Assembly: GCF_016127575.1 (NCBI RefSeq)
Contig: NZ_CP066018.1
Location: 2,640,001-2,672,000 of the forward strand
Length of the DNA: 32,000 bases
Reading direction: 5' to 3'
From: Cupriavidus necator
GTDB lineage: Bacteria; Pseudomonadota; Gammaproteobacteria; Burkholderiales; Burkholderiaceae
The notes beneath the pieces are model-generated. The model did no database searches, was not told the origin of the DNA, and worked only from the letters and a program-made list of their open reading frames with translations. Position numbers and translations under genes: made by a program. Of this stretch, positions 10,306 to 31,271 are shown one piece after another (position 1 is the stretch's first letter; each line of letters begins with the position of its first letter).

Positions 10306-12222
10306 TCAACGCTCGTAGCGCGAACGGCTGTTGCGGTTGCCGCTGCCATTGCCGCCGAAACTGCGATTGCCGTCACGGTTGCCGTCGCGGTTGCCGAAGC
10401 TGCGGCCGTCGCCGTTGCCACCGGTGTTGCCACGATAGCCGCCGCCAGTGCGGTCGCCGAAGCCACCACGGTTGTTGTCGCCAAAGCTGCGGGGGGCGGC
10501 GCCGTCGCGGTTGCCGAAACCACCGCGGTTGTCGTCGCCGAAGCTGCGGCCACCTTCGCGGTTGCCGAAGCCACGCGCACCGTCGTTGGCGCCGCGGTAG
10601 CCGGCGCCCTGGCCGCCCTGGCCCTGGCCACGGTAGCCGCCTTCACGATTGCCGAAGCCGCCGCGGTTGTCGTCACCGAACGGGCGTGCGCCTTCCGGGC
10701 GGTTGCCGAAGCCGCGGCTCTCGCCGCTGAACTTGCGCTCGCCGAAGCCGGTGCGGCTTTCGCCGCCGCCGAACTTGCGGTCGCCGAAGCTGCGTTCGCC
10801 GCCACGGTAGCCGCCGCCATTGCCGCGGAAGTCACCACGGCCGCCACCCGGCTTGCCGCCGAAGTTGGAACGCGGCTTGGGCGAACGGCGCGGCTCCAGG
10901 CCTTCGATCACCGAAGCGTCGATGCGCTGGTTGGTGAAGCGCTCGATGCGCTTCCACTGGAACATGTCGTTGTGGTTCACCAGGTTGATGGCGGTGCCCG
11001 AGCGGCCCGCGCGGCCGGTACGGCCGATGCGGTGCACGTAGTCCTCGGCCTGCTTGGGCAGGTCGAAGTTCACCACGTGGGTGATATCGGGCACGTCGAT
11101 GCCGCGCGCGGCCACGTCGGTGGCCACCAGCACGCGCAGGTTGCCGCGGCGCAGCGCGGTCAGGGTGCGGTTGCGCGCGCCCTGGGTCATGTCGCCGTGC
11201 AGCGCGCCGGCCGAAAAGCCGGTGTCGGACAGGCGCTCGGCCAGCGAATCGGCATCGCGCTTGGTCGCGGTGAAGACGATGGCTTGCTTGAGCGTCGCGT
11301 CGCGCAGCAGGTGGTCCAGCAGGCGTTCCTTGTGCGACATGTCGTCGGTGAAGTGCAGGCGCTGCTCGATATGGCTCTGGTCGGCGCGGGCCGCGGCGAT
11401 CTCGATGCGCTGCGGGTCGCGCAGCTGGCGCGAGGCCAGCTGGGCAATGCGCGCATCCAGCGTGGCCGAGAACATCAGCGTCTGGCGCGTGGCCGGGGTG
11501 GCATTGACGATGGCGTCGATGTCGTCGGCAAAGCCCATGTCGAGCATGCGGTCGGCTTCGTCGAACACCAGCATCTGCAGGGCCGACAGGTCGATGCGGC
11601 CGGCGTCGATATGGTCGAGCAGGCGGCCCGGCGTGGCCACCAGGATGTCAGGCATCTTGGCCAGCGCGGCCAGCTGCTTGGGGTAGGGCATGCCGCCCAG
11701 GATGCTGGCGCAGACGATGCGGCGCAGGTTGCGGCCGTACTTGGCGGCGGCCTCGGTCACCTGCAGGGCCAGTTCGCGCGTCGGGGTCAGCACCAGCAGT
11801 GCGGGCTGCGCCGGCGACGGGCGGGGGCGCTTGCCCTTCATGCGCTTGGCGGGCTCGGTCGCGCGCTGCGGCGCCGGCATTTCGCTGATGCGCTGGATCG
11901 CGGGCAGCATGAACGCGGCGGTCTTGCCCGAGCCGGTCTGGCTCGAGACCAGCAGGTCGCGGCCGGCCAGGAAGGCCGGGATGGCCTGGGCCTGCACCGG
12001 CGTGGGCGTGTTGTAGTTCAGTTCGGAGAGGGCGCGCAGGATGGCCGCATCGAGGCCAAGCGTGGCGAAACCGCTTTCCACGGCCGGGGCTTCTTCAACT
12101 GCCGGGCTGGGGTTGAGCAGGGCGTCGAGCTTGTCGAGCGGGCTCTGGGCAGCGTCGGAAGTGATCGAAGCGTCGGTCGCGGAGGCAATAGCTTGCTCCG
12201 CACGAATGTCGTGCTGGGTCAT
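10306..12222 (-). CDS. DEAD-box ATP-dependent RNA helicase (RhlE-like) with a 187-aa Gly/Arg/Asn-rich C-terminal tail
   Basis: Track ORF 10306..12408 trimmed to ATG 12222 (MTQHDIRAEQ...). Q motif TPTPVQ, SQTGSGKTAAF, PTRELA, DEAD (FDEADRMLDMGF), SAT, HRIGRTGRAG. Confidence 0.9.
   Translation of the reverse strand: MTQHDIRAEQAIASATDASITSDAAQSPLDKLDALLNPSPAVEEAPAVESGFATLGLDAAILRALSELNYNTPTPVQAQAIPAFLAGRDLLVSSQTGSGKTAAFMLPAIQRISEMPAPQRATEPAKRMKGKRPRPSPAQPALLVLTPTRELALQVTEAAAKYGRNLRRIVCASILGGMPYPKQLAALAKMPDILVATPGRLLDHIDAGRIDLSALQMLVFDEADRMLDMGFADDIDAIVNATPATRQTLMFSATLDARIAQLASRQLRDPQRIEIAAARADQSHIEQRLHFTDDMSHKERLLDHLLRDATLKQAIVFTATKRDADSLAERLSDTGFSAGALHGDMTQGARNRTLTALRRGNLRVLVATDVAARGIDVPDITHVVNFDLPKQAEDYVHRIGRTGRAGRSGTAINLVNHNDMFQWKRIERFTNQRIDASVIEGLEPRRSPKPRSNFGGKPGGGRGDFRGNGGGYRGGERSFGDRKFGGGESRTGFGERKFSGESRGFGNRPEGARPFGDDNRGGFGNREGGYRGQGQGGQGAGYRGANDGARGFGNREGGRSFGDDNRGGFGNRDGAAPRSFGDNNRGGFGDRTGGGYRGNTGGNGDGRSFGNRDGNRDGNRSFGGNGSGNRNSRSRYER
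10309..10869 (-). repeat. Low-complexity tandem coding repeats (RGG / FGNR(D/E)G / SFGDDNRGGFGNR units) forming the helicase tail
   Basis: The tail reads ...RGFGNRPEGARPFGDDNRGGFGNREGGYRGQ...ARGFGNREGGRSFGDDNRGGFGNRDGAAPRSFGDNNRGGFGDRTGGGYRGN...SFGNRDGNRDGNRSFGGNGSGNRN. This repetitiveness also generates the spurious ORFs 10164..10730 (+) and 10290..10847 (-). Confidence 0.85.
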
Positions 12223-12610
12223 GTCGGAATGGTCAAATAAATGCATGGCACCCCGGCAAAGCAAAATGGGGTGGGCGCAGTGCAAAGTCTTAAAAAGGCT
12301 TCGGCGCCAATCGGTGAGGCCGTTACGACAGACACAGCTGGCAGTACGGCGGCAGGCAGGGCGGTGGCTGGTCCCGCTAGGCGGTCCGGCCGTATCCCTG
12401 GCAGGCAAACAGCTCAGGTTTCAGGCTGTTCAACAGGATCGGAGACGAGGCGACGTCAGGTGAGCGGTGCGTTCTGCTGGGCGGCTGGGGCCATGAAGTG
12501 ATGACTAGGCGTCCGGCAGCGAGGAAACAGAGCTTGGGAGGGCAGCGGATTCGCCGCGGCAGGAAGCCGGGCGTTTGGCGGATCTCACAGTTGCGAAACT
12601 CACGGCGCGG

Positions 12611-12740: not shown

Positions 12741-13024
12741 GCGAGCACACAGGATGCCCGCACGGGGCGGACGAAAACGCTCCCGCTTGACCTCCTGCAG
12801 CGGCATTGGGCCGCTGTTCGCGGCGAGCACTGCGGTCATTGACTCCACGCGCCAGACTTCCTGCGACTCTCCGGGTGGTCCGGATGGGCGTCCGCTTCAT
12901 GCATCATGGGCGGAATCATGGGAAGCCTGCCTGGAACAGAATGACCGAACTGCTGACCGCGTGACCCAGGTGGTCCGGGCCCGTCCGCATCCAAAGCCCG
13001 CCAGCGATGGCGGGCTTTTCATTT
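12741..13024 (+). ncRNA. Candidate orphan small RNA / untranslated transcript (~285 nt), bounded by a promoter-like and a terminator-like element
   Basis: Promoter at 12707-12734 and rho-independent terminator at 12993-13024. Only tiny or low-quality ORFs lie inside. Internal stem cagcgg-cattggg-ccgctg at 12798-12816. Imperfect direct repeat GGTGGTCCGG..CGTCCGC at 12874-12895 and 12969-12988. No Rfam family recognised by eye. Confidence 0.3.
12993..13024. terminator. Rho-independent terminator; strong on the + strand, probably also ends the minus-strand peptide operon
   Basis: aaagcccgcc-agcgat-ggcgggcttt followed by tcattt. On the minus strand the same stem is preceded by aaatgaaaa and followed by only TTTGG. 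It lies 25 nt past the pepA4 stop. Confidence 0.6.
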
Positions 13025-13042
13025 GGCGGTTGTGGTTGCGGT

Positions 13043-13285
13043 TCAGTCTTCTGCATCCTTGCCAGCGGCCTTGCGCGGCAGCCGCCCTAGCGGCTGCTCC
13101 TGCGGCATCACATGGCGGTTGCCCGGCAATCCGCCCGGGTAGTCGACGATGCGCGCGGTGTCCTGGCGCCGCAGGCCATGCCATGCCTGGCCGCCGGCGG
13201 TACGCCCGCCGCCCAGGATGGCGGTCATGGCCTGCCGGTCGAGATCCATGCTGTCGGGCAAATCCTTGATGACGATCACTGCCAT
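13043..13285 (-). CDS. GG-leader peptide precursor, divergent basic cargo (pepA4, my label)
   Basis: MAVIVIKDLPDSMDLDRQAMTAILGG|GRTAGGQAWHGLRRQDTARIVDYPGGLPGNRHVMPQEQPLGRLPRKAAGKDAED. The leader is in the same 26-aa register as its five paralogs (D8 L9, L15 D16, M20, I23, G25 G26). The same ccGGAGAc..ATG initiation region is used. Confidence 0.55.
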   Translation of the reverse strand: MAVIVIKDLPDSMDLDRQAMTAILGGGRTAGGQAWHGLRRQDTARIVDYPGGLPGNRHVMPQEQPLGRLPRKAAGKDAED

Positions 13286-13389
13286 GGCTGTCTCCGGTCA
13301 AGCGGCGCCACGGCCATGCGGCCGCGGGACCGCTTCAGTATAGGCGAGGCGGTCCGCGGTATTGCCCGCGGGGCCGCCGCGCGGTGCGC

Positions 13390-13662
13390 TCAGACTGCGG
13401 CGAAATTGCCGGCCCATTGCGACGGGTTGACGTTGACGCGCACCGGGCCGAAGTCGGGGCCGACGATGCTGTTGTTGAGCGTGTTGACGTTGATGCTCTG
13501 CAGCTGCGCGATGTTCTGGTTGACGTTGACGGTGACGTTGGCCAGCGGGCCGACGCTGCCGACACCGCGGCTGAGCCACGAGTTGCCGCCGCGTACGGCG
13601 CACAGCGAGGCACGGTCGAGTTCTTTGCTCAGGGCGAGATCGCGGACGAGGATCGATGACAT
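13390..13662 (-). CDS. GG-leader peptide precursor, divergent Asn/Val-repeat cargo (pepA3)
   Basis: MSSILVRDLALSKELDRASLCAVRGG|NSWLSRGVGSVGPLANVTVNVNQNIAQLQSINVNTLNNSIVGPDFGPVRVNVNPSQWAGNFAAV. Good RBS (aaaggagcaccaccATG). Leader in the family register. Confidence 0.7.
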   Translation of the reverse strand: MSSILVRDLALSKELDRASLCAVRGGNSWLSRGVGSVGPLANVTVNVNQNIAQLQSINVNTLNNSIVGPDFGPVRVNVNPSQWAGNFAAV

Positions 13663-13696
13663 GGTGGTGCTCCTTTGAGTCGGGTGCCGGGGGCGG

Positions 13697-13728
13697 CTGG
13701 CGCGGAGATTGCAGCATCTGCGCGCCAG
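13697..13728 (-). other. Strong intercistronic hairpin between pepA2 and pepA3 (13-bp stem, one mismatch, 6-nt loop; no U tract)
   Basis: Plus strand: ctggcgcggagat-tgcagc-atctgcgcgccag. Confidence 0.4.
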
Positions 13729-13744
13729 CAGTGGCCAGGGCGTA

Positions 13745-14014
13745 TCAGCCGAAGATGTTGTTGGTGGCGTTCTGGTTGGTGTGCACGTCGGACTTGACGT
13801 GGTCCAGGAAGGCCGAGCCGTTGCCGTTCAGGTTGGTCACGGTCTGCATCTGCGCGATGCTTTGCGTGGCGTTGATGCTGTTGTCCAGCGACAGCCTGAT
13901 CGGCGTGTAGACGGCGGCGAAGGGCAGGTAGGCCAGGCCGCCGCGCACGGCGTGCATGCGCTTGCTGTCGAGGGTTTCGGCGGCGGGCAGGTCCTTGATG
14001 GTCAGCGTGGTCAT
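13745..14014 (-). CDS. GG-leader peptide precursor (pepA2)
   Basis: MTTLTIKDLPAAETLDSKRMHAVRGG|LAYLPFAAVYTPIRLSLDNSINATQSIAQMQTVTNLNGNGSAFLDHVKSDVHTNQNATNNIFG. 89 aa; hydrophobic residues at -4, -7, -12 relative to the GG. Confidence 0.8.
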   Translation of the reverse strand: MTTLTIKDLPAAETLDSKRMHAVRGGLAYLPFAAVYTPIRLSLDNSINATQSIAQMQTVTNLNGNGSAFLDHVKSDVHTNQNATNNIFG

Positions 14015-14068
14015 GATGGTCTCCGGTATCGGTCAGTGCGTGGGTGTGGGTGGCTGGGGCGCGTGGGC

Positions 14069-14338
14069 TCAGCCGTAGATGTTGTTGCTGGCGTTCTGGT
14101 TGGTATCCACATGCGAACGGACATGGTCCAGGAAGGCCGAGCCGTTGCCGTTCATGTTGGTGACGGTCTGCATCTGGGCGATTTCCTGCACGGCCTTGAT
14201 GCTGCTGTCGAACGACAGCTTCACCGGGCTGTAGACCGCGGCGAACGGCATGTAGGCCAGGCCGCCGCGTACGGCGTGCATGCCCTTGCGGTCCAGGGTT
14301 TCGGTGGAGGACAGGTCCTTGATGGTCAGCGTGGTCAT
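14069..14338 (-). CDS. GG-leader peptide precursor (pepA1)
   Basis: MTTLTIKDLSSTETLDRKGMHAVRGG|LAYMPFAAVYSPVKLSFDSSIKAVQEIAQMQTVTNMNGNGSAFLDHVRSHVDTNQNASNNIYG. First gene behind the sigma54 promoter. SD-like GGAG lies 7 nt before the ATG. Confidence 0.8.
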   Translation of the reverse strand: MTTLTIKDLSSTETLDRKGMHAVRGGLAYMPFAAVYSPVKLSFDSSIKAVQEIAQMQTVTNMNGNGSAFLDHVRSHVDTNQNASNNIYG

Positions 14339-14417
14339 GATGGTCTCCGGTAGAGGAAGGTACTGCCTTGGGTCTGGTTTCGAGCATCGGGTTGGTGTCG
14401 CGCTCGGGAGGTACTAA

Positions 14418-14433
14418 CGCAGGGACTGTGCCA
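14418..14433 (-). promoter_or_regulatory. Sigma54 (-24/-12) promoter of the pepA1-A4 operon
   Basis: The minus strand reads caTTGGCACAGTCCCTGCGTTag, i.e. TGGCAC-N5-CTGC with correct GG-N10-GC spacing. It is ~95 nt upstream of the pepA1 ATG and near-identical to the element at 19493-19508. Confidence 0.75.
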
Positions 14434-14464
14434 ATGCCGTTGCCGGTCCCGACCAGTCACGCGC

Positions 14465-14483
14465 AACTGCCTGAAAACACGGG
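14465..14483 (-). promoter_or_regulatory. Conserved upstream element (candidate enhancer/UAS or IHF-type site) of the sigma54 promoter, copy A
   Basis: Minus strand CCCGTGTTTTCAGGCAGTT, 31 nt upstream of TGGCAC and preceded by the A/T-rich gaaaataaat. It matches 17/19 with copy B at the same spacing. Confidence 0.35.
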
Positions 14484-14665
14484 CGATTTATTTTCGATGT
14501 CGGCTTGCGGGCACTGGCTGCGGGCGCTGCCGCATGCTACGGGTGACGGGCCGCGGCCAACAGGCGGCGTGCCGGTGTTGGCGCGGCCGCGACAGTGGCG
14601 CGCCAAAGGCGATGCGATTGGCAGGGGGCGCCCGCGCGCGGCGTTGCACGCCGGCTTCGCATGGT

Positions 14666-14694
14666 TTGCGCATGCCTTGGGTGCGCACTAGTAT
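14666..14694 (+). promoter_or_regulatory. Candidate sigma70 promoter of the kinase gene (TTGCGC-17 nt-TAGTAT)
   Basis: tTTGCGCatgccttgggtgcgcacTAGTATcc, ~50 nt upstream of ATG 14747. Confidence 0.3.
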
Positions 14695-14746
14695 CCATCT
14701 CGAAGGCAGGCATATCCGCATCGTGGGATGCGCCGTGCCAGCAACC

Positions 14747-16798
14747 ATGTCGGGGCATCCGGTGGCCAGTCTCAAAGAACTGATCCGCAAGTTCCAGAAC
14801 GGCGGTCTCTCCGACGACGAGTTTGTTGCGTCGTTCGAAACGGCGCTGGCGCAGGATCCCACCACGCCCAGCCAGGCCGCGCGCGTGGTCATCGAGGAAA
14901 ACACGCGCTTCCCGTTCCCGCCCGCGGTCTATGCCGAAGTCATGCGGCGCATCGAGCGCCGCGGCGCCACGCAGTACGACGGCGCCACCGAGGCCACGCG
15001 CCTGGCCGGCACGCAGACGGGCTCGCTGTATGCGACCTCGCCCGAGCCGGGCACGCTGCCGCAGGCGGCGCATACCAAGGGCGTGGGCGATACGCTGAAC
15101 GGCCGCTTCGTGCTGGAAGAATGCCTGGGCGTGGGCGGCATGGGCACGGTCTACAAGGCGCTCGACCTGCGCAAGCTGGAAGCCTCGGACCGCAAGCCCT
15201 ATATCGCCATCAAGGTGCTGAACCTGCAGTTCAGCGGGCACCCCAAGTCGCTGATGGCGCTGCAGCGCGAGGCGCGCAAGGCGCAGACGCTGGCGCACCG
15301 GAATATCGTCACCGTCTATGACTTCGACCGCGACGGGCCGGTGGTCTTCCTGACCATGGAATACCTGTCAGGCTCTTCGCTCAACCATGTGCTCAAGGCC
15401 CCGGGCTTCACCGGCATGCCGATGGCGCGCGCCATGTCGATCATCAACGGCATGGGCAATGCGCTGGCATACGCGCACGAGCGCGGCTTCGTGCACTGCG
15501 ACTTCAAGCCCGCCAACGTCTTCCTGACCGCCAACGGCGAGGTCAAGGTGATCGACTTCGGCATCGCGCGCGGCTTCCTGCCGCCGGCCGACGAGTCCGA
15601 CCGGACCGTGTTCGATCCCGGCTCGCTGGGTGGCATGACGCCAGCCTACGCCAGCCCGGAGATGTTCGACCATTGCGAGCCCGACCCGCGCGACGACATC
15701 TTTGCGCTGGCCTGCGTGACCTATGAACTGCTGACCGGCAAGCATCCCTACCAGCGGCTCTCGGCCAACCAGGCGCGCGATGCCGGGCTCAAGCCGGCGC
15801 AGCCGCCGCAGTTGAGCCGCACGCAGTGGAAGACCCTGCGCGAGGCGCTGTCGCTCGACCGCGAGACACGCACGCCCACCGTCGCGCGCTTCCTGCATGG
15901 CATGAGCGCGGTGCCGGTGGTGTCCACGCGGCGCCCCTCGCCGCTGATGGCAGGCGGCGCGCTGGCCGTGCTGGCGGGCGTGTCGGCGATCGGCTACTAC
16001 GCCTGGCATTCGCAGCGCCAGGCCGAAGCACCGGCTGGCGATGCGCGCGTCGAGGCCCCGGCTACACCGGTGCCCGCAGCGCCGGTCATCCCGCCCGCAC
16101 CGGCTGCCCGCCCGGCGGTGCTGTCGATGGCCGACGTCACGAAGATGCTGGCCGCGGTGCCGTGCTCGCTGCTCACCGCCACCCAGCAGGCGCAGACGTT
16201 GCGTGTGCGTGGCTTCCTGGCCGAGAGCGTCGGCGCCGTGCGGCTGCGCGAGCAGCTCAGCGCGTTGCCGGGCGTCAAGGAGCTCAAGGGCGTGTCGATC
16301 GACACCCAGCCGCTGGCCGCCGACAAGTGCGACGTGGCCACCCTGATCGCGCCGTACTGGTCGGGCCACCGCGAAGGGGGCACGGCTTCGTCGCTGCGGC
16401 TGCGCGGCCAGGGCACGCAGCTGACCGAAGGGTCACCGCTGGTGCTGGATCTGCGCACGCCGGCGCGCGACTCCTATGTCTATGTCGATTACTTCGCGGC
16501 CGACGGCAAGGTGGCGCACATGGTGCCGAGCGCGCGCGTGCCCGCCCACCAGGCGCCGCCCAGCCATGGCGCCACGGTTGGCGACGGTGGCGACTGGATC
16601 ATCTCCGGGCCGTTCGGCACCGAGCTGGTGGTGTTGCTGACCACGCCCGCGCCGCTGTTCGATGGCCGGCGCGCCGAGGTCGAGCTGCACAAGGACTACC
16701 TGAAGGCACTGGAAAAGCCGCTGGCGCAGATGGCGCGCACCTATGGCCGGGACCGCATCAGCGCGGACCTGGTGCAGATCTCCACGCGCGCGCGCTGA
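14747..16798 (+). CDS. Transmembrane Hanks-type Ser/Thr protein kinase (non-RD) with a periplasmic DUF4384-like C-terminal domain
   Basis: Track ORF 14534..16798 trimmed to ATG 14747 (MSGHPVASLKELIRKF...); GTG 14723 is an alternative. GVGGMGTVYKA, IAIKVL, HCDFKPANVF (HRD->HCD), VIDFGIA, TPAYASPE. TM segment LMAGGALAVLAGVSAIGYYAW. C-terminal SYVYVDYFAADGKVAHMVPS...ELVVLLT resembles DUF4384. Confidence 0.9.
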   Translation: MSGHPVASLKELIRKFQNGGLSDDEFVASFETALAQDPTTPSQAARVVIEENTRFPFPPAVYAEVMRRIERRGATQYDGATEATRLAGTQTGSLYATSPEPGTLPQAAHTKGVGDTLNGRFVLEECLGVGGMGTVYKALDLRKLEASDRKPYIAIKVLNLQFSGHPKSLMALQREARKAQTLAHRNIVTVYDFDRDGPVVFLTMEYLSGSSLNHVLKAPGFTGMPMARAMSIINGMGNALAYAHERGFVHCDFKPANVFLTANGEVKVIDFGIARGFLPPADESDRTVFDPGSLGGMTPAYASPEMFDHCEPDPRDDIFALACVTYELLTGKHPYQRLSANQARDAGLKPAQPPQLSRTQWKTLREALSLDRETRTPTVARFLHGMSAVPVVSTRRPSPLMAGGALAVLAGVSAIGYYAWHSQRQAEAPAGDARVEAPATPVPAAPVIPPAPAARPAVLSMADVTKMLAAVPCSLLTATQQAQTLRVRGFLAESVGAVRLREQLSALPGVKELKGVSIDTQPLAADKCDVATLIAPYWSGHREGGTASSLRLRGQGTQLTEGSPLVLDLRTPARDSYVYVDYFAADGKVAHMVPSARVPAHQAPPSHGATVGDGGDWIISGPFGTELVVLLTTPAPLFDGRRAEVELHKDYLKALEKPLAQMARTYGRDRISADLVQISTRAR

Positions 16799-16843: not shown

Positions 16844-18067
16844 CTACTTCATGTCGCGCGCCACGCGAAAGCCGTTCTGCGACTGCCGCACGCTGGGGCT
16901 GTACTTGAAGCGCGTGGACGACACCATGTAGTTCGCCCCCTCGCGCCAGGAGCCGCCGCGGATCACGCGTGCGCCGCAGGCGTTCTCGTTCCATACGCGC
17001 CCGTCGGCGGGCGCGCCCTTGTATGAGCTGTGCCAGCAATCGGCCACCCATTCCCACACGCTGCCGTTGACGTCGTGCAGGCCGTACGGGTTGGCCGCGA
17101 ATGTCCCGACCGCGGCCGGCGCATCCTGGCTCCATGGGTCGCCGCAGTCCTTGCAGTTGGCATTGCCCTTGCGCATCTGGTCGCCCCACCAGTAGGCACT
17201 GGCGGTGCCGCCGCGCGCTGCGTATTCCCATTCGGCCTCGGTGGGCAGCCGGTAGGACTTGCCGGTGGTCTTGCTGAGCCAGGCCACGTACTGCTGCGCG
17301 TCGTCCCAGCTGACGTCGCGCACCGGCGCGTTCTTCGCGCTGTCGGCGACGGTGGGGACGCGCTGGCAGCCGCCGGCGTCGGCGCAGGCATTCCATTGCT
17401 CGACCGTGACCTCATAGCGGCCGATGGCAAACGGCTGGCCGATGGTGACGTGGTGCGGGGGCTTCTCGGCGGGATCGCTGGCACTGCTGCCCATGGTGAA
17501 GCTGCCCGCCGGCAGGGGGACCAGCACCGGGCAGGCCGGGCAATCGCGGATCTCGCCGGTGCGCAATGTGGCGCTGACCGCGCCGCCCGCCGCCGCGCCC
17601 GGGCGCAGCGATGCCGTTGCCGGTGGCGCAGCAGGTGGCGCAGCAGGTGACGCAGCGGGCGGCGATGCCGGACGCGCTGCCGCGGCCGGTGCCGGCGGCC
17701 GCGTGACCTGGCCCCCGGCAGAGGTGCCGGAGCGGGGCGGCGGTGCGGGCGCCTGGGCCTTGGGTGCGGAGGCGGACGCCGCCAGCCGCTCCAGGCGCGC
17801 CCTGGCCAGCACCGCGAAGCGTCCGTTGGGGTACTGCTTCAGGTAGGCCTCGTAGTCGCCGGCATAATTGCTGTTCTTGATCGATTCCCAGAAGCTCAGC
17901 TCGTACTGCTCCTCGGTGTTCTTGGGCATGATGCCGGCGAGCAGCAGCGGTTCCGTGGCCGCGGGGCCGGCGGCAGCGGCGGCCGCCTGCGCGGGCAGCG
18001 GCGCGGCGGCGAGCATGGCGGCCATGGCGGCCGTGCGTACGACTGGTAGATTGCGCCACATCTTCAC
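16844..18067 (-). CDS. Secreted FGE-sulfatase-fold (SUMF1/EgtB/PvdO family) protein with an N-terminal helical module and a Pro/Ala linker
   Basis: Signal peptide [58 protein letters not shown] module. FGE domain: [76 protein letters not shown]. Confidence 0.85.
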
Positions 18068-18355
18068 ACCTCGCTGGAGCCGCGGCGATCCCGCTGCATG
18101 CCGGTAGCTGCCGGCACATGCGTCGGGGGCGCATTGTGGTGTTGCCGAGACGTCGACCGGCTTGCTTCAAGATAGCACAGCGCGTGTGTCTCCGGCGGGG
18201 CATTGGCACGCAACCGCGACGCGCCGGGTTCGCTTTTTCCGTGCTTGCGACCTAACCTGAATGACGAATCGCCGAGCGCTGACCAACAAGCAACAAGAAT
18301 GGGCTTTCGGGACAACGTGATCGGGTTTCGGACTGTTATCCGGGAGGCGCCGCGT

Positions 18356-18781
18356 ATGTCCAGACGATTCCTGTTCCGCCTGCTGGCGGTTGCCGCCCTC
18401 GCCGCGGCCCCGTCGCTGTCGCTGTCGACGGCAGCCCCGCCCAATGCCGAGGCCTACATCATCTGGCCGCACGATGGCACGGTCATCAGCGGCGGCAAGT
18501 TCTGGGTGCGCATGGGCCTGCGCAATATGGGCGTGTGCCCCAAGGGCGTCGAGTCGCCGCGCTGCGGGCACCACCACCTGCTGGTCGACACCGAGCTGCC
18601 GCCGCTGGACAAGGAAATCCCTTCGGACAAGAACCACCTGCACTTCGGCGCGGGCGAGACCGACGCGCGCATTGAGTTGCCGCCCGGCAAGCACACGCTG
18701 CAATTGCTGATGGGCGATGCCAAGCACGTGCCGTTCGAGCCGCCGATCTATTCGAAGAAGATCACGATCACGGTGAAATAG
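18356..18781 (+). CDS. Secreted DUF4399-family protein (copy 1)
   Basis: Track ORF trimmed to ATG 18356 (RBS gggagg). Signal peptide MSRRFLFRLLAVAALAAAPSLSLSTA. GHHHLLVD, HLHFGAGETD, LPPGKHTLQLLMGD motifs. Confidence 0.75.
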   Translation: MSRRFLFRLLAVAALAAAPSLSLSTAAPPNAEAYIIWPHDGTVISGGKFWVRMGLRNMGVCPKGVESPRCGHHHLLVDTELPPLDKEIPSDKNHLHFGAGETDARIELPPGKHTLQLLMGDAKHVPFEPPIYSKKITITVK

Positions 18782-18840
18782 CGGTGCAGCGCGCGCCGCG
18801 GAAGCCGAACCTAGGCCGATCAGCAAACAGGGAGAGCACC

Positions 18841-19269
18841 ATGTCCAGACTACTTGCCGCGGCTGTCTTTGCCGCCAGCCTGCTGCTGTCAGCGGTGGTG
18901 CAGGGTGGTTCGACGCCGGCGCCGCCCAACGCCTACCTGTATATCGGCTGGCCCAACGACGGGCAGACGATGCCCGCGGGCAAGCCATTCAAGGTCTGGT
19001 TCGGGTTGCGCAATATGGGGGTGGCGCCAAAGGACGTGAAGTATCCCAATACTGGGCACCATCACCTGCTTGTCGATGTGGACCTGCCGCCGATGGACAA
19101 GGAGATCCCCAATGACCGCAATCACCTGCATTTCGGGGCGGGGGAGACCGAGACCATGATCGAGCTGCCGCCCGGCAAGCATACGCTGCAGCTGCTGATG
19201 GGGGATGACAAGCACATTCCCACCAACCCGCCGGTTTATTCGAAGAGGATCACGATCTACGTGAAGTGA
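18841..19269 (+). CDS. Secreted DUF4399-family protein (copy 2, tandem paralog)
   Basis: Track ORF trimmed to ATG 18841 (RBS gggagag). Signal peptide MSRLLAAAVFAASLLLSAVVQG. Same GHHHLLVD / HLHFGAGETE / LPPGKHTLQLLMGD motifs; roughly two thirds identical to copy 1 by eye. Confidence 0.75.
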   Translation: MSRLLAAAVFAASLLLSAVVQGGSTPAPPNAYLYIGWPNDGQTMPAGKPFKVWFGLRNMGVAPKDVKYPNTGHHHLLVDVDLPPMDKEIPNDRNHLHFGAGETETMIELPPGKHTLQLLMGDDKHIPTNPPVYSKRITIYVK

Positions 19270-19289
19270 TCCGGACCTTGCGGTGACGG

Positions 19290-19314
19290 CGGCGCGCAAT
19301 GCGCCGTTTTTTTT
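19290..19314 (+). terminator. Rho-independent terminator after the DUF4399 pair
   Basis: cggcgc-gcaat-gcgccg followed by T8. Confidence 0.7.
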
Positions 19315-19443
19315 GTGCGCTGGCGCCGCAAGTGTCGGTCGCCATCCAACATCGACGGGCAAGCTGTTGGCTGCGCGCCGCCAGTGCGCGCTGACGCAGG
19401 CTCGCCGCGCCTCCGCCGCCGGCGCTGGCGGCAAGAAAAATTC

Positions 19444-19462
19444 CCCGTGTTTACAGGCACTT
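19444..19462 (+). promoter_or_regulatory. Conserved upstream element of the sigma54 promoter, copy B
   Basis: CCCGTGTTTACAGGCACTT, 30 nt upstream of TGGCAC and preceded by agaaaaatt. It pairs with copy A (14465-14483, minus strand). Confidence 0.35.
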
Positions 19463-19492
19463 CCGTGATCCGCGCGGCCATGGCGCCGGGGC

Positions 19493-19508
19493 TGGCACGC
19501 TCCCTGCG
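19493..19508 (+). promoter_or_regulatory. Sigma54 (-24/-12) promoter of pepB1-pepB2
   Basis: gcTGGCACGCTCCCTGCGAT: TGGCAC-N5-CTGC with GG-N10-GC spacing. The ~69-nt leader to ATG 19588 is highly similar to the pepA1 leader (cctcc.gagcgcgacaccaacccgatgctcga...ccttcctctacc.ggagaccatcATG). Confidence 0.75.
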
Positions 19509-19587
19509 ATTGTCCCTCCTGAGCGCGACACCAACCCGATGCTCGACCAACCACCAAGGTAACACCTTCCTCTACCCGGAGACCATC

Positions 19588-19857
19588 ATGACCACGCTGA
19601 CCATCACCGACCTGACCACCGTCGACACCCTGGACCGCAAGGGCATGCTCGCCGTTCGCGGCGGCCGCACCCTGCTCCCGTTCATGCCGGTGTACCACCC
19701 GCTCAACCTGTCGTTCGACCACAGCATCACCGCCGTGCAGGAAATCGCGCAGATGCAGACCGTCACCAATATGAATGGCAACGGCTCGGCCTTCCTGGAC
19801 CACGTGAAGTCCGACGTGCACACCAACCAGAACGCCACCAACAACATCTACGGCTGA
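19588..19857 (+). CDS. GG-leader peptide precursor (pepB1)
   Basis: Track ORF 19315..19857 trimmed to ATG 19588. MTTLTITDLTTVDTLDRKGMLAVRGG|RTLLPFMPVYHPLNLSFDHSITAVQEIAQMQTVTNMNGNGSAFLDHVKSDVHTNQNATNNIYG. Confidence 0.8.
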   Translation: MTTLTITDLTTVDTLDRKGMLAVRGGRTLLPFMPVYHPLNLSFDHSITAVQEIAQMQTVTNMNGNGSAFLDHVKSDVHTNQNATNNIYG

Positions 19858-19904
19858 GCCCCTGCGCGCCAGCTAGCTGCTTCTTACCGATACCGGAGAC
19901 CATC

Positions 19905-20194: not shown

Positions 20195-20229
20195 AGCGCC
20201 GCGGGGGCGTCCCCGCGGCGCTTTTGTTG
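20195..20229 (+). terminator. Rho-independent terminator/attenuator between pepB2 and the NodT gene
   Basis: agcgccgcgggg-gcgt-ccccgcggcgct followed by tttgttg. Confidence 0.6.
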
Positions 20230-26114: not shown

Positions 26115-26867
26115 ATGACTGGTATTGTGCGTATCGACGACGAGGTGCTTGGCTTCGAGGAGTTCGTGCGCTTGCTCAAGCTGACCGGACAGTTCGAAGG
26201 GCTGGTCGAGCAGATGGTGCGCGACAAGCTGACCGTGCACGCGGCAAAGCGGCAGGGCGTGGTGGTCACGCCGGAGGAGATCCAGGAACGCGCGGACCAG
26301 TTCCGCCGCGTGCAGGGCCTGCATCGCGCCGCAGACATGAATCACTACCTGGATGCGCTGAACATCAGCCTGGACGAATTCGAGGCCTTTGTCACCGACA
26401 GCCTGTACCAGGAGCGGATGATGGAGCAGGTGTGCAGCGAGGCCGCGGTGCAGGCGTACTTTGCGCTCAACTCGCCGCGCTTCGACAGCATCGAGGTCAG
26501 CCATATCGTGGTCGACAGCGAGGGCAAGGCCAAGGAGCTGATCTCGTACCTGCAGGATGATCCCGATGCCTTTGCCGAGATGGCGCGCGAGCATTCCATC
26601 GCCGACACGCGCGAGCGCGGAGGCGAGATCGGCAAGGTGCTGCGCGGCTCGCTCAAGACCGATATCGAGGCCAAGGTGTTCAATGCCGAGCCTGGCGACC
26701 TGCTGGGACCGTTCCCGTCGGCTGACCGTTCCTTCTTCGAAGTCTTCCTGGTGCGCGAAAAACACCCGGCCACCCTCGATAGCGAGGTGGCGGTGGAAGT
26801 GCGCCGCCTGCTGCGCGAAGACTGGCTGATGGCCAGGGCGCAGGAACATGTCATCGAAGCCCGCTAG
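26115..26867 (+). CDS. Cytoplasmic PpiC/parvulin-type peptidyl-prolyl cis-trans isomerase
   Basis: No signal peptide (MTGIVRIDDEVLGFEEF...). Rotamase domain SHIVVDSEGKAKELISYLQDDPDAFAEMAREHSIADTRERGGEIGKVLRGSL...EPGDLLGPFPSADRSFFEVFLV. The 3' end overlaps the ABC gene start by 20 nt. Confidence 0.8.
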   Translation: MTGIVRIDDEVLGFEEFVRLLKLTGQFEGLVEQMVRDKLTVHAAKRQGVVVTPEEIQERADQFRRVQGLHRAADMNHYLDALNISLDEFEAFVTDSLYQERMMEQVCSEAAVQAYFALNSPRFDSIEVSHIVVDSEGKAKELISYLQDDPDAFAEMAREHSIADTRERGGEIGKVLRGSLKTDIEAKVFNAEPGDLLGPFPSADRSFFEVFLVREKHPATLDSEVAVEVRRLLREDWLMARAQEHVIEAR

Positions 26868-29800
26868 CGCGAGCGGCGAGCCCGCCGCCCCGCCTGCCCC
26901 GGACCAGCCGGAGGCAGGATCGGCGCTGGCCGCCTTCCTCGCCACCGTCGAGATCCTGTCGGTGCTGGTGCCGGAGGAGCTGGCACGCCTGGCGGAAGCC
27001 GCGCAGGTGCTGACCTTCGGCTTTGGCGACACCGTCTGCAATGCCGGCGAAGCGGCGCCGGGCCTGTTTATCGTCAAGTCCGGCTCGGTGCGCGTGTTCA
27101 ACGAGGAGCACGGCAAGGAAATCAGCATGGGCGTGCGCAAGGCCGGCGAGGTCTTTGCCGATATCGCGCTGCTGCGCGACTACCGGCATGAGTCGTCGGT
27201 GCGCGCCTCGGGCAAGACCGAACTGCTGCTGATCCCGCGCAGCGTGGGCGAGCCGGTGGTGGCCGGCAACCCGGCGGCGCTTGCGTTTATCACCAGCTAT
27301 GTCGCGATCAGCTCGGCCGGCGGCTTTGTCGCGCGGCTGTTCGACCTGCGCGGCAAGCTCGACAAGCAGGAGCTGGAAGACGCCGTGCGCAGCGTCGGCG
27401 TCAAGCGCGTGGCGGCCGGCAAGGAGATCCTGAAGCAGGACGGCCGCGAAGACCGGCGCCTGTACGTGGTGCGCCAGGGCACGGTGCGCATCGTGCGCAG
27501 CGAAGAGGGCAGCGAGTACCCGCTGGCGACGCTGGGGCAGGGCGACATCTTCGGCGAGCGCGCCTGCGTGATGCGGCAGGAGCAGCTGGCCTCGGCCATT
27601 GCCGATACCGACGTGCGCCTGCTGGTGATTCCCGAGAAGACGGTGCAGCTGATTTTGGAGCGCAACCCGCGCCTGCGCGAGGTGCTGGAAGAGCGCATCC
27701 GCGTGCTGGACCGCGAGTTGCATCGGCAGAAGAAGCTGGCCGAACGGCGCAAGCGCCCGGTGCTGCTGGACCTGCATTCAAAGCCCGAGCTCGGCGAAAA
27801 GCTGATCCGCCGCTTCGCGCTGGTGGAGCAGGCCGAGGAGATGGATTGCGGCGCGGCCTGCCTGGCGATGATCTGCCGGCACTACGGCATCCCGATGACG
27901 CTGGGCAAGCTGCGCGAACTGGCCAATGTGACCACCCAGGGCGCCACGCTCGACAGCCTGGCGCGCGCCGGCGAAGCGCTCGGCTTCACCACGCGCGGGG
28001 TGCAGTGCACGCGGGATTCGCTGATGGGGTTCGAGCTTCCCTTCATCGTGCACTGGGAGGGGTACCACTACGTGGTGGTGTACGGGATCTCGTCGCGCTG
28101 GGTGTGGGTGGCCGACCCGGCCATCGGCTTCCGCAAGATGAGCGCCGAGGAGTTCGAGCGCGGCTGGAGCGGCACCTGCCTGCTGTTCACGCCGGGCGAG
28201 AGCATGACCCAGCTGTCGGTGTCGCGCTCGCCGTGGCTGCGCTTTATCGGCTACCTGGCGCCGTACAAGAGGATCCTGGCGCACCTGTTTCTGGCCACCT
28301 TCGTGATCCAGATGCTGGGGGTGGTCCCGCCGCTGATTATCCAGAACATCCTGGACGGCGTGGTGGTGCACCAGAACGTGGGGCTGCTGAACCTGCTGAT
28401 CGCGGGGCTGATCATCTCCAACGTGTTCTCGCAGCTGATGTCTACGATTCGCGCGTATCTGGCCAACTTCATGGTGCGCAACATGGATTTCGCCATGATG
28501 TCGCACTTCTTCAAGCACACGCTGTCGCTGCCGCTGTCGTTCTTTGCCAAGCGCAAGACCGGGGACATCTTCGCGCGCTTCCAGGAGAACCAGACCATCC
28601 GCGCCTTCCTGACCGAGTCGACCGTGACCACGGCGCTGAACCTGCTGATGGTGTTTATCTACTTCACCATCATGTTTCTCTACAACGTCAAGCTGACGCT
28701 GCTGCTGATCGCCTTCGTGATCCCGATCGCGGCGCTGACGGTGGTGGTGACGCCCAAGGTCAAGACCTATGCGCGCGAGGTGTTCGCGGCATCGACCGAT
28801 GCCAAGGCCTACCTGATGGAAACGCTGGGCGGCGCCGAGACCGTCAAGGGCATGGGCATCGAGCGCCCGGTGCGGCTGCGCTGGGAGCGCAAGTACGCCA
28901 AGGCGCTGGACGCGCAATACCGGGCACAGGCCTTCCACATCCTGGTGGGGCTGGTGAGCCAGCTGCTCAACGCCGCCACCACCATCGCGGTGCTGTGGGT
29001 GGGCGCGACGCTGGTGCTGGAGCGCGAGCTCACCATCGGCCAGCTGATCGCCTTCAATGCCTTCATGGGCAGCGTGCTGGCGCCGCTGATGGGGCTGGTG
29101 GCGTTGTGGGGCCAGCTCAACGATGCCGGCGTGGCGATGGAGCGCCTGGGCGACGTGCTCGACCTGGAGCCCGAGCAGAAGCCGCAGGACGTGCTGTCGC
29201 GCGTGATGCTGCCCGACCTGCAGGGCGAGATCGTGATGAAGGACCTGTACTTCCGCTACGGCGGCGAAGACACGCCCTATGTGCTGGAGAACATCAGCTT
29301 CGCCATCCGCCCTGGCGAGATGGTGGCCATCGTCGGGCGCAGCGGCTCAGGCAAGACTACGCTGGCCAAGCTGCTGGTGGGCTTCTACAAGCCTACCGAG
29401 GGCTCGATGACAGTGGACGGCTATGACCTGAACGTGATCGACGCGGCGTTCTACCGCGCGCAGGTGGGCTACGTGATGCAGTCCAACCTGCTGTTCTCGG
29501 GGACCATTGCCGAGAACATCGCCTGCGGCGACGACAGCCCGGACCGGCGCCGCATCGAGGAGGTGGCGCGCATGGCCGATGCCCACGCCTTTATCAGCAA
29601 GCTGCCGCTGGGCTACGAGCAGGTGGTGGGCGAGCGTGGTATCGGGCTTTCCGGCGGGCAGATCCAGCGCCTGTGCATTGCCCGCGCGCTGTACCACGAC
29701 CCGCGCCTGCTGGTGTTCGACGAGGCCACCTCGGCGCTCGACACGCAGTCAGAGAGCAACATCCTGGCGAATATGCAGGAGATCCTGCGCGGGCGCACCG

Positions 29801-29958
29801 CGGTCATCATCGCGCACCGGCTCAGCACCATCATGCAGGCCGATAAGATCCTGGTGCTGTATGAAGGCGCCATCGTCGAGCAGGGCCGGCATGAGGAGCT
29901 GATCGAGCGCAAGGGCATGTATTTCCAACTGGTGCAGAAGCAACTGAGCGCAGCATGA
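26848..29958 (+). CDS. Peptidase-containing ABC transporter (PCAT): 2 x cNMP-binding-like domains + C39 Cys-peptidase + 6-TM ABC domain + NBD
   Basis: 1036 aa. CNB-like 1 is about aa 30-140 and CNB-like 2 about aa 160-285. C39 domain: EEMDC(334)GAACLAMICRHYG, HWEGYHYVVVYG, WVADP (Cys/His/Asp present). NBD: GRSGSGKTT, LSGGQIQRLCIARAL, LLVFDEATSALD, IIAHRLS. Confidence 0.92.
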   Translation: MSSKPASASGEPAAPPAPDQPEAGSALAAFLATVEILSVLVPEELARLAEAAQVLTFGFGDTVCNAGEAAPGLFIVKSGSVRVFNEEHGKEISMGVRKAGEVFADIALLRDYRHESSVRASGKTELLLIPRSVGEPVVAGNPAALAFITSYVAISSAGGFVARLFDLRGKLDKQELEDAVRSVGVKRVAAGKEILKQDGREDRRLYVVRQGTVRIVRSEEGSEYPLATLGQGDIFGERACVMRQEQLASAIADTDVRLLVIPEKTVQLILERNPRLREVLEERIRVLDRELHRQKKLAERRKRPVLLDLHSKPELGEKLIRRFALVEQAEEMDCGAACLAMICRHYGIPMTLGKLRELANVTTQGATLDSLARAGEALGFTTRGVQCTRDSLMGFELPFIVHWEGYHYVVVYGISSRWVWVADPAIGFRKMSAEEFERGWSGTCLLFTPGESMTQLSVSRSPWLRFIGYLAPYKRILAHLFLATFVIQMLGVVPPLIIQNILDGVVVHQNVGLLNLLIAGLIISNVFSQLMSTIRAYLANFMVRNMDFAMMSHFFKHTLSLPLSFFAKRKTGDIFARFQENQTIRAFLTESTVTTALNLLMVFIYFTIMFLYNVKLTLLLIAFVIPIAALTVVVTPKVKTYAREVFAASTDAKAYLMETLGGAETVKGMGIERPVRLRWERKYAKALDAQYRAQAFHILVGLVSQLLNAATTIAVLWVGATLVLERELTIGQLIAFNAFMGSVLAPLMGLVALWGQLNDAGVAMERLGDVLDLEPEQKPQDVLSRVMLPDLQGEIVMKDLYFRYGGEDTPYVLENISFAIRPGEMVAIVGRSGSGKTTLAKLLVGFYKPTEGSMTVDGYDLNVIDAAFYRAQVGYVMQSNLLFSGTIAENIACGDDSPDRRRIEEVARMADAHAFISKLPLGYEQVVGERGIGLSGGQIQRLCIARALYHDPRLLVFDEATSALDTQSESNILANMQEILRGRTAVIIAHRLSTIMQADKILVLYEGAIVEQGRHEELIERKGMYFQLVQKQLSAA

Positions 29959-31271
29959 AGCTATACAACCAGGGAGCCACCCCCGCCTCGGTCACGTCCC
30001 CGGTGTCGTTCGCCGGGCTGATCGAGAAGATCGAGATCCTGCGTTCCACGCTGCGCTGGTCGTCGCGGCTTGACCGGCCGGAGATCGAGAAGCTGCTCAA
30101 GCAGGTCACCACGCTGCGCGACGAGGTGATGGGGCTGTCGCACAAGGAGCGCTTCGTGCAGGCCGCGTCGGCCGAGGCGGCCCCGCCGCAGGAAGAAGTC
30201 GAGCGCATGCCGCGCGCGCGCCGGCAGGCACTGGTTGAGCGCAGCTTTATTTTCGAAGGGACCTTCGGCGACAACCCCAAGTTGCTGGAGGCACTGGAGA
30301 TTGCCGAGAAGGCGGCGCCGACCGACCTGCCGGTGCTGATCGATGGAGAGAGCGGCACCGGCAAGGAGCTGATGGCCAAGGTGATCCATGCCAATGGCTC
30401 ACGCACCGACAAGCCGTTTATCTCGGTCAACTGCGGCGCCATCCCCGACAGCCTGCTTGAATCCGAGCTGTTCGGCCACAAGAAGGGCGCCTTCACCGGC
30501 GCCAGCAATGACCGCCGCGGCAAGTTCGAGAGCGCGCATACCGGCACCATCTTCCTGGACGAGATCGGCGAGCTGCCGCTGACCGGGCAGGTCAAGCTGC
30601 TGCGCGTGCTGGAGGCGCACGAGATCCAGCGCGTGGGCTCGGACGAGGCGATCTCGGTCGATACGCGCATCGTCGCGGCGACCAACAAGGACCTGCGCCG
30701 CATGAGCCAGGCCGGCACCTTCCGCGAAGACCTGTTCTATCGCCTGAGCGTGATCCACGTCAGCCTGCCGTCGCTGCGCGAGCGGCGCGACGAGATCCCG
30801 CTGCTGGTGTCGTACTTCAGTGACGAGGCCGCCGGCATGCTCAAGCGCCGGCCACTCAAGCTGACGCCGCGGCTGCGCGACTTCCTGCTGCACTACGACT
30901 ACCCGGGCAATATCCGCGAACTGCGCAACCTGATGTACCGGCTGAGCTGCCTGGCCGGCGACACCGCCGACCTGGCCCAACTGCCGCAGGACATCCGCCC
31001 CAGGCCCGCCGCACTGGCGGTGGTGGGCAATGGCCCCGCCGCTGCCGACATTGCCATGGCGACGTCCCTCAGCGAAGCCAAGCGCGCCGCCAGCGACGAG
31101 GCCGAGCGGGCCTTCCTCGAACGGGGCTTGCAGGAGGTCGGCGGCACCGTCGCCGAACTGGCGCGGCGCTTCGACATGAACCGCTCGCACCTGCAGATGC
31201 TGCTGAAGAAGCACGGCATCCACTCGAAGGATTTCCGCGCCAACCGGCAGGCCGAAGGCGGCAAGGGGTAG
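29955..31271 (+). CDS. Sigma54-dependent enhancer-binding protein (bEBP) with a non-receiver ~115-aa N-terminal region and a Fis-type HTH
   Basis: GESGTGKELMAKVIH (Walker A), ESELFGHKKGAFTGA (GAFTGA loop), FLDEIGELP, RVGS, RIVAATN, FREDLFYRL, C-terminal GGTVAELARRFDMNRSHLQMLLKKHGI. The ATG overlaps the ABC stop (ATGA, 29955-29958). Confidence 0.9.
   Translation: MKLYNQGATPASVTSPVSFAGLIEKIEILRSTLRWSSRLDRPEIEKLLKQVTTLRDEVMGLSHKERFVQAASAEAAPPQEEVERMPRARRQALVERSFIFEGTFGDNPKLLEALEIAEKAAPTDLPVLIDGESGTGKELMAKVIHANGSRTDKPFISVNCGAIPDSLLESELFGHKKGAFTGASNDRRGKFESAHTGTIFLDEIGELPLTGQVKLLRVLEAHEIQRVGSDEAISVDTRIVAATNKDLRRMSQAGTFREDLFYRLSVIHVSLPSLRERRDEIPLLVSYFSDEAAGMLKRRPLKLTPRLRDFLLHYDYPGNIRELRNLMYRLSCLAGDTADLAQLPQDIRPRPAALAVVGNGPAAADIAMATSLSEAKRAASDEAERAFLERGLQEVGGTVAELARRFDMNRSHLQMLLKKHGIHSKDFRANRQAEGGKG

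Follow-up and report, generated by a model that had tools for sequence, protein, structure and literature searches.

A predicted sigma-54-dependent promoter in front of a double-glycine-leader peptide operon of Cupriavidus necator H16

The DNA stretch analysed here (the window, 32,000 nt) belongs to chromosome 1 of Cupriavidus necator H16 and carries on its minus strand, at 14419..14433, a short element denoted P1. In our reading, to which a probability of about 0.85 is assigned, P1 is a functional sigma-54 (RpoN)-dependent promoter of an operon of four genes (13043..14338, minus) for peptide precursors with double-glycine (GG) leaders. This reading is supported because a number of features agree: a second motif of the same kind in the window, conservation across genera, an upstream array of half-sites with an IHF-like box, the absence of a recognisable sigma-70 promoter, a sigma-54 enhancer-binding protein (EBP) with a GAFTGA motif encoded in the same island, an expressed rpoN gene, and an experimentally mapped promoter, that of pepA, as precedent. 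As a promoter type and in its mechanism P1 is ordinary, the sigma-54 class being well known. From the sequence we infer its dependence on sigma-54 in vivo, the exact transcription start, the protein that binds the enhancer, the role of IHF, and the signal acting on the EBP.

Core element and its conservation

On the minus strand, where the context reads ...cattggcacagtccctgcgttagt..., P1 consists of TGGCAC (14433-14428), the spacer AGTCC, and CTGC (14422-14419). The GG is located at 14432-31 (-25/-24) and the GC at 14420-19 (-13/-12), so that the two dinucleotides are spaced by exactly 10 nt. From the T of TGGCAC it is 95 nt downstream to the ATG (14338) that opens the first peptide open reading frame (ORF; 14069..14338, minus, 89 aa), whose product is 100% identical to CAJ93774. 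The element is correctly oriented within a 408-nt intergenic region (14339-14746). Standard -24/-12 geometry predicts the +1 position near 14407, and thereby a 69-nt 5' leader (14339..14407, minus) with a GGAG Shine-Dalgarno sequence 9 nt before the ATG. The original prediction had described this motif with its coordinates and GG-N10-GC spacing at ~95 nt before the first peptide gene, all of which proved correct on the minus strand; its transcription start near 14407, likewise a prediction, agrees with the standard geometry.

A paralogous core promoter, P2, is predicted on the plus strand at 19493..19507 and reads TGGCAC-GCTCC-CTGC (TGGCACGCTCCCTGC), with a predicted +1 at ~19519. Its GG (19494-95) and GC (19506-07) show a spacing identical to that of P1, and it precedes, at a distance of 95 nt, two further peptide genes (19588-19857 and 19905-20174, plus), which are homologous members of the same family and are assigned to it. 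In the ORF list, the first of these genes is hidden inside a longer, GTG-started ORF (19315..19857). An alignment of ~285 nt of the two upstream regions gives a mean column identity of 81%; the -24/-12 element, an A/T-rich block, an upstream inverted repeat, and the leader are kept between them. The exact pattern TGGCAC-N5-YTGC occurs twice in the window vs 0.43 expected matches, and at least two matches are found in 7 of 100 shuffles. P1 and P2 are the only such matches, both 95 nt upstream of peptide operons, and as paralogous copies they are not independent events.

The original prediction had also proposed to score the DNA with a sigma-54 weight matrix. When ~64,000 window positions were scored with an approximate matrix modelled on the consensus of Barrios et al. 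1999, P1 reached 11.8 bits (rank 5) and P2 12.3 bits (rank 4). Measured against the extended consensus TGGCACG-N4-TTGCW, P1 is near-consensus and not perfect, with perfect agreement in TGGCAC and in the TGC at -14 to -12. A CTGC-type -12 element has a precedent within the Burkholderiales, namely the experimentally mapped promoter of Aquincola pepA, which depends on RpoN1 and has the sequence TGGCAC...CTGCTT (PMC9850573). A consensus scan of 12900-14800, which is crude and tuned to E. coli, returned no sigma-70-like promoter.

For the comparative survey, 80 related loci were fetched by peptide homology alone, with one genome per species. Members of the peptide family were located by a regular expression (regex) for the leader and grouped into tandem clusters. 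A match of at least 11 bits counted as a site, which was sought within 250 nt upstream of first genes and, for later genes, in their own intergenic spacer. Such a site is present before 69 of the 80 cluster-first genes vs 1 of the 96 later genes. The ATG follows the T of TGGCAC at a median of 95 nt, and 68 of the 69 sites are found at 74-115 nt. The 11 first genes lacking a site are accounted for by contig ends or by first genes that the regex missed; Massilia and N. autotrophicum each harbor two sites of 15-18 bits before such missed genes. As background, the scan of 958,000 positions gave ~66 non-peptide matches scoring 11.3 bits or more.

The loci obtained by peptide homology cover Cupriavidus, Pandoraea, Massilia, Noviherbaspirillum, Herbaspirillum, and Caballeronia, and a fetch anchored on the EBP adds Paraburkholderia, giving seven genera. 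In Pandoraea, Massilia, Noviherbaspirillum, Herbaspirillum, and Caballeronia the element is kept where the flanks have diverged. Among 55 distinct cores, GGCA and TGC are invariant, and the N5 spacer varies. We regard this conservation across genera, and not any single-window statistic, as the decisive argument for a promoter.

Some other positions score well with the matrix. The top one (13698-13713, plus, 14.1 bits) lies antisense between peptide genes 2 and 3, is restricted to the necator clade, and falls on the two arms of a hairpin, so it was judged to be a by-product and probably no promoter. The hairpin itself (CTGGCGCG-N15-CGCGCCAG, 13697-13727, minus) is intercistronic, without a T-run, and may act in processing or attenuation. 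Two more matrix hits, one at 7480 (276 nt ahead of a TerC gene) and one at 17158 (within the FGE-sulfatase gene), fit the chance rate.

Upstream array, leader, and candidate activator

Upstream of P1, four alternating TGT[TC]GG-like half-sites with a 16-bp period form a candidate enhancer, or upstream activating sequence (14544..14594, minus): TGTCGC (14594-89), CCAACA (14581-76), TGTTGG (14562-57), and CCGTCA (14549-44). The candidate enhancer of P2 (19333..19383, plus) comprises TGTCGG (19333-38), CCAACA (19346-51), TGTTGG (19365-70), and CCGCCA (19378-83). Both arrays span ~-137 to -187 relative to the predicted +1. CCAACA-N13-TGTTGG has two matches in the window vs 0.02 expected, one upstream of each promoter, and TGT-N13-ACA-N13-TGT likewise two vs 0.06 expected, oriented as the downstream promoter. 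Across 78 unique upstream regions, the repeat is encountered at -150 to -130 from TGGCAC in 59. Anchoring on the proximal TGT[TC]G only yields independent information peaks every 16 bp (TGT[CT]GC, C[CA]RACA, and CCRYCA), and the array is therefore described as four alternately oriented half-sites. The array, as a candidate enhancer, keeps its position across genera and falls within the ~80-200 bp at which upstream activator sequences are usually found. The start that the ORF list gives for the divergent kinase gene (14534) would place the array inside coding sequence; homology to distant genera begins at codon ~75 of that ORF, which makes the ATG at 14747 the likely start.

Between array and promoter, at ~-57 to -83, an A-tract is followed by an IHF-like box (14464..14490, minus; AAATCGCCCGTGTTTTCAGGCAGTTG), with its core TTTCAGGCAGTTG at 14476-14464. 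This block is conserved between the P1 and P2 regions. The box is near-consensus (WATCAANNNNTTR) in other genera, and AATCAATGGGTTA and ATTCAATGACTTG occupy the matching position in Noviherbaspirillum, Massilia, and Herbaspirillum. A strict IHF regex matches 25 of the 78 regions, in all cases at ~-50. At both promoters the A/T block had been flagged as a possible terminator of the opposite strand; the other genera show a near-consensus IHF box and no G+C hairpin, and the IHF reading is preferred.

The predicted leader starts, at ~+1 to +3, with a conserved stem-loop, CGAGCG-N14-UGCUCG, located at 14381-14406 (minus) for P1 and at 19520-19545 (plus) for P2, and found in related loci as well. 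Leaders were folded singly because MAFFT misaligned the 3' arm. The stem is the minimum-free-energy structure in most of the 22 independently folded leaders, and compensatory substitutions are seen in Noviherbaspirillum (GAGUG/CACUC and AAGUGC/GCACUU). With just 5-6 bp and modest z-scores of +0.1 to -3.6, the result is only suggestive; the stem-loop may be a 5'-terminal stabiliser or a regulatory hairpin. Neither the leader nor any other part of the window matches an Rfam family.

The candidate cognate activator is the EBP encoded at 29955..31271 (plus; 100% identical to CAJ93762). As the original prediction had stated, an EBP gene is located in the same island: the protein matches Sigma54_activat (PF00158, E 1.9e-70) and AAA_lid_14 (PF25601, 1.7e-18), and it has the GAFTGA motif in its AAA+ domain and a C-terminal Fis-type helix-turn-helix (HTH). 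It stays below all NCBIfam cut-offs (NorR 328.8 vs 476, NifA 311.1 vs 528.85, NtrC 291.8 vs 558.6, and PEP_resp_reg 286.6 vs 502.6) and is therefore no member of the NtrC, NifA, NorR, or PrsR equivalogs. No receiver, GAF, PAS, or known sensor domain was found in it. For its N-terminus a helical hairpin of ~55 residues is predicted by a model of low-to-moderate confidence (pLDDT 62.5); residues 18-73 are nearly invariant, and S31 and T32 are conserved. Orthologues in Pandoraea, Noviherbaspirillum, Caballeronia, and Paraburkholderia are 76-83% identical; their HTH does not vary, which parallels the conservation of the half-sites. The corresponding sigma factor gene, rpoN (H16_A0386), is situated outside the window; it is well expressed in C. 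necator H16, and its expression rises under nitrogen limitation (PMC3734047).

As a blind test, three loci were fetched through the EBP alone, from Noviherbaspirillum, Paraburkholderia, and Caballeronia. In all three, sites of 13-17 bits are located directly upstream of GG-leader peptide genes, and a PP2C phosphatase gene adjoins the EBP gene. In Cupriavidus and in all three of these loci the start codon of the EBP gene and the stop codon of the exporter gene share a 4-nt overlap (29955-29958 in the window), which suggests a conserved translational coupling of activator and exporter. The Paraburkholderia and Caballeronia loci encode a divergent class of peptides (MASITVNDL...IRGGGG and MSAITVTDL...IGGGG), and the Paraburkholderia site belonging to this class has TGTTGG repeats and a ATCAACGTGTTG box upstream. 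Taken together with the features of the protein, these loci make it fairly probable that the island EBP is the activator of P1. By the island, LRAT/NlpC-P60-like genes (Paraburkholderia 12828, plus; Caballeronia 13622, minus) are preceded by TGGCCC-N5-ATGCAA (11-12 bits) and may belong to the same sigma-54 regulon.

Weighing the readings and a possible mechanism

Several points weigh against a sigma-54 promoter under the control of the island EBP. The -12 half of P1 is off consensus, with a C at -15, where T is preferred, and a G at -11, where W is preferred; moreover, -20 is an A instead of the preferred G, a base seen in the 14433 site only. P1 and P2 are not top-ranked because of these bases at -15 and -11 and, for P1, at -20, so that P1 is only 5th of the ~64,000 positions on a matrix that is itself approximate. 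The epithet 'textbook', used in the original prediction, thus suits the -24 half (TGGCAC is perfect) and somewhat flatters the -12 half, which has CTGCG instead of TTGCW. The information profile of the 55 cores is partly circular, because the matrix served to select the sites; the occupancy figures (69/80 vs 1/96) are, unlike this profile, independent evidence. Since most loci stem from Cupriavidus, many of the 69 sites are not independent, and the weight is carried by ~10-12 promoters from six other genera. Upstream, the half-sites recur every 16 bp (1.5 helical turns), an unusual period for an HTH protein that binds as a dimer, and the C. necator IHF-like box is degenerate, agreeing at 7 of 9 specified positions for P1 and at ~5 of 9 for P2. 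The pairing of EBP and promoter rests on co-localisation and co-occurrence only, and C. necator has other EBPs outside the window. No transcription start, rpoN-mutant, or expression data on the locus were found in the searchable literature.

One rival explanation accepts P1 and P2 as real sigma-54 promoters but assigns their activation to an EBP from elsewhere, e.g. NtrC under nitrogen limitation, with the island EBP regulating something else. The EBP is encoded 15 kb from P1, carries no recognisable sensor domain, and is linked to the promoter by co-occurrence only, and the response of rpoN to nitrogen limitation would suit an NtrC-type control. However, no NtrC-type dyad is present near P1 or P2, and the array, TGT-N13-ACA-N13-TGT, corresponds neither to the NtrC consensus nor to the NifA pattern TGT-N10-ACA. 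The HTH of the island EBP is invariant across the genera that keep the half-sites. Furthermore, in three distant genera its gene is always overlapped by 4 nt with that of the exporter and lies a few kb from sigma-54-fronted GG-peptide genes, and no other sigma-54 site in the window offers itself as an alternative target. An external activator is thus considered decidedly unlikely.

It could also be supposed that TGGCAC-N5-CTGC is the site of another regulator, or a part of the 5' leader RNA transcribed from a weak upstream sigma-70 promoter, since a conserved sequence does not by itself reveal which factor binds it, the leader is strongly conserved too, and the sigma-70 scan is crude and tuned to E. 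coli. Yet a GG and a GC fixed at exact spacing around a free spacer are the pattern that sigma-54 needs; an enhancer-like array and an IHF-like box are found at canonical distances, together with a co-occurring GAFTGA activator; neither sigma-70-like hexamers nor an Rfam match were detected; and the element marks operon-first genes only. There is very little room left for this reading. Finally, a chance match in GC-rich DNA, doubled by regional duplication, would be compatible with the paralogy of the two window copies (81% mean column identity), with at least two matches in 7 of 100 shuffles, and with three non-peptide positions that outscore both. This explanation is effectively refuted by the retention of the element in Pandoraea, Massilia, Noviherbaspirillum, Herbaspirillum, Caballeronia, and Paraburkholderia despite diverged flanks, and by its presence before first (69/80) and not later (1/96) genes.

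Sigma-54 holoenzyme forms a closed complex at -24/-12, which opens only once an AAA+ activator bound to an enhancer has remodelled it at the expense of ATP, in many cases with the aid of IHF in looping the DNA. With P1 taken as a sigma-54 promoter, the holoenzyme would bind its -24/-12 element as a closed complex unable to open alone, and P1 and P2 would be silent unless an EBP is active. An AAA+ activator, most likely the EBP at 29955-31271 that appears to be translationally coupled to the C39-ABC exporter, would assemble on the half-site array; DNA looping, probably helped by IHF, would carry it to the holoenzyme, where the GAFTGA loop would couple ATP hydrolysis to promoter opening. P1 would then transcribe the genes from 14338 to 13043 (minus), starting at ~14407, and P2 would drive the two further peptide genes, whose products would be cleaved and exported by the C39-ABC exporter. 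Peptide synthesis would in this way be permitted only in cells that also make exporter and activator, i.e. it would be tied to export capacity. The island's module of Ser/Thr kinase, PP2C, and FHA protein is a possible source of the signal that controls the EBP.

The P2 unit appears as an insulated transcription unit (19288-20222) in the order terminator, half-site array, P2, two peptide genes, and strong terminator. Upstream it is insulated by a terminator at 19288-19308 (plus), and before the exporter operon it ends at a strong intrinsic terminator (20195..20222, plus) with a 12-bp stem of 11 G-C pairs followed by TTTTGTTG. Autoregulation of the EBP by read-through from P2 was considered and rejected, given this G+C terminator after the second peptide gene and no sigma-54 site before the exporter operon. 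Peptide production had been proposed to be an all-or-none decision. This proposal is speculation without sequence support: no transcriptional positive-feedback loop is evident, because the EBP gene is part of the exporter operon, which is without a sigma-54 site and is separated from the P2 unit by the terminator. Positive feedback through the receptor kinase is conceivable. In an extended and rather unlikely scenario, the island would constitute an uncharacterised peptide-autoinduction or secretion-coupled circuit of the Burkholderiales, in which the kinase, with PP2C and the 2xFHA protein, senses one of the exported peptides or another envelope signal, phospho-threonine or exporter occupancy is relayed to the sensor-less EBP, and the EBP fires the sigma-54 promoters of all peptide operons. 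If true, such a circuit would be a Gram-negative counterpart of ComCDE signalling, built from a eukaryote-like kinase and sigma-54, and could give the switch-like behaviour proposed earlier.

The island and related systems

The operon assigned to P1 contains four genes (14338-14069, 14014-13745, 13662-13390, and 13285-13043, minus). The precursors comprise 80-90 aa and share the conserved leader M..L.I.DL....LD......VRGG; the family falls into 85 protein clusters, nearly all of them from Cupriavidus. The peptides match none of the Pfam and NCBIfam models, those for NHLP and Nif11 leaders included. Some NCBI records call the 89-aa peptides 'STAS domain-containing protein', a name without Pfam or NCBIfam support that looks like an annotation error. 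The fourth peptide (13043-13285, minus, 80 aa) keeps the GG leader; its core is charged, rich in Pro, Gly, and Arg, and unrelated, with 25% identity to peptide 1. It is conserved beside peptide 3 in most genomes and could differ in role, e.g. as a signal or antagonist. The likely terminator of the operon (12993..13015, minus; GCCCGCCA-tcgc-TGGCGGGC then TTT) falls below the T-run threshold of the scan and was recognised by reading.

The exporter operon (plus) encodes OEP (ending at 21822), a 2xFHA membrane protein with a large periplasmic helical region (21968-24658), HlyD (24655-26037), PpiC, the exporter (26848..29958), and the EBP. The exporter, 100% identical to CAJ93763, is composed of two cNMP-binding domains, a C39 peptidase (domain match 1.5e-39, with the motifs Q...DCGAACL, HYVVV, and ADP present), and an ABC transporter. 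GG leaders and a C39-ABC protein together class the precursors, by sequence criteria, as double-glycine peptides exported by a peptidase-containing ABC transporter (PCAT), for which cleavage is predicted. The two N-terminal cNMP_binding stretches recognised by Pfam (26848-27800) suggest a cyclic-nucleotide gating of export.

Divergent from the P1 operon, a receptor-type Ser/Thr kinase with a periplasmic DUF4384 is encoded at 14747..16798 (plus), and the PP2C phosphatase at 31300-31962 (minus). Across genera, the genes for kinase, 2xFHA protein, and PP2C keep their synteny with those for the peptides and the exporter; they are a possible input to the system, with a putative functional link to the promoter. 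The set resembles the threonine-phosphorylation module PpkA/PppA/Fha1 of type VI secretion, here combined with a type I peptide exporter.

The peptide clusters are separated by genes for two tandem paralogous DUF4399 proteins with signal peptides (18203-18781 and 18784-19269, plus) and for a secreted FGE-sulfatase-domain protein (16844-18067, minus). The DUF4399 pair and the FGE-sulfatase protein are syntenic in Cupriavidus and Caballeronia, and roles in peptide modification or immunity are possible. A 700-aa ORF (10306-12408), considered as an exporter, is a DEAD-box helicase according to Pfam and unrelated to the island. Left of the island, genes for an EgtD-like histidine methyltransferase (7726-8823) and an EgtB-like protein with DinB_2 and FGE-sulfatase domains (8968-10224, plus) form an ergothioneine-type biosynthesis pair (7726-10224) unrelated to the promoter.

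In the searchable literature, no paper was found that places double-glycine or PCAT-exported peptides under sigma-54 control, and none on this locus. P1 could provide the entry point to a compact, conserved regulon with at least two sigma-54 promoters bearing a recognisable enhancer, one activator, one exporter, and multi-copy GG peptides. The host, C. necator H16, is a widely engineered production strain, and the system is also found in related soil Burkholderiales. Promoter, enhancer, and EBP would serve as an experimental handle, as over-expression or deletion of the EBP should switch the peptides on or off and reveal their function. The same trio may be of use as a tightly silent, orthogonal expression switch for the engineering of C. 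necator.

The closest characterised analogue are the RpoN-dependent PEP-CTERM genes under PrsK/PrsR, e.g. pepA of Aquincola tertiaricarbonis (PMC9850573). Both systems belong to Burkholderiales and consist of genes for small secreted proteins, often in multiple copies, each with a TGGCAC...CTGC -24/-12 promoter, a stem-loop terminator after the gene, an upstream enhancer, and a dedicated island-encoded EBP, the last two being candidates in the present island. The peptides described here, however, carry N-terminal double-glycine leaders and are predicted to leave the cell by C39-ABC/HlyD/OEP type I export, whereas PEP-CTERM proteins have C-terminal sorting signals and depend on exosortase. Moreover, the EBP of the island lacks a receiver domain and a partner histidine kinase and scores below the PEP_resp_reg cut-off (286.6 vs 502.6 bits).

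In the classical looping systems glnAp2/NtrC, nifH/NifA, and Pu/XylR, enhancer dyads are located ~100-200 bp upstream with an IHF site in between. P1 shares with them the distal enhancer-like array, the IHF-like site between array and promoter, the -24 GG/-12 GC core, and an AAA+ candidate activator with GAFTGA. It differs in the half-site TGT[TC]GG with its alternating 16-bp period, which is neither the NtrC consensus nor the NifA TGT-N10-ACA, in an EBP without their receiver, GAF, PAS, or V4R modules, and in the target, which is peptide secretion and not a metabolic operon.

With regard to the cargo, ComC/ComD/ComE and class II bacteriocin induction in Gram-positive bacteria come close. These systems employ a histidine kinase and a LytTR response regulator, which acts on sigma-70-type promoters with direct repeats. 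GG-leader peptides, processing and export by a C39 peptidase-ABC protein, and a dedicated activator encoded at the locus (here a candidate), which must be switched on before the peptide genes are transcribed, are common to both; in the island, in contrast, a receptor Ser/Thr kinase accompanied by PP2C and FHA proteins is the candidate sensor, and the activator would act through sigma-54. NHLP/Nif11-type export (TIGR03796 NHLM_micro_ABC1 and TIGR03794) likewise combines multiple GG-leader precursors with a C39-ABC exporter and an HlyD-family adaptor, and TIGR03796 is the second-best NCBIfam match of the exporter ABC protein. Neither the exporter (564 vs a cut-off of 853.3 bits) nor HlyD (71.7 vs 156.2) is a member of these families, and the exporter of the island is further distinguished by its two N-terminal cNMP-binding domains.

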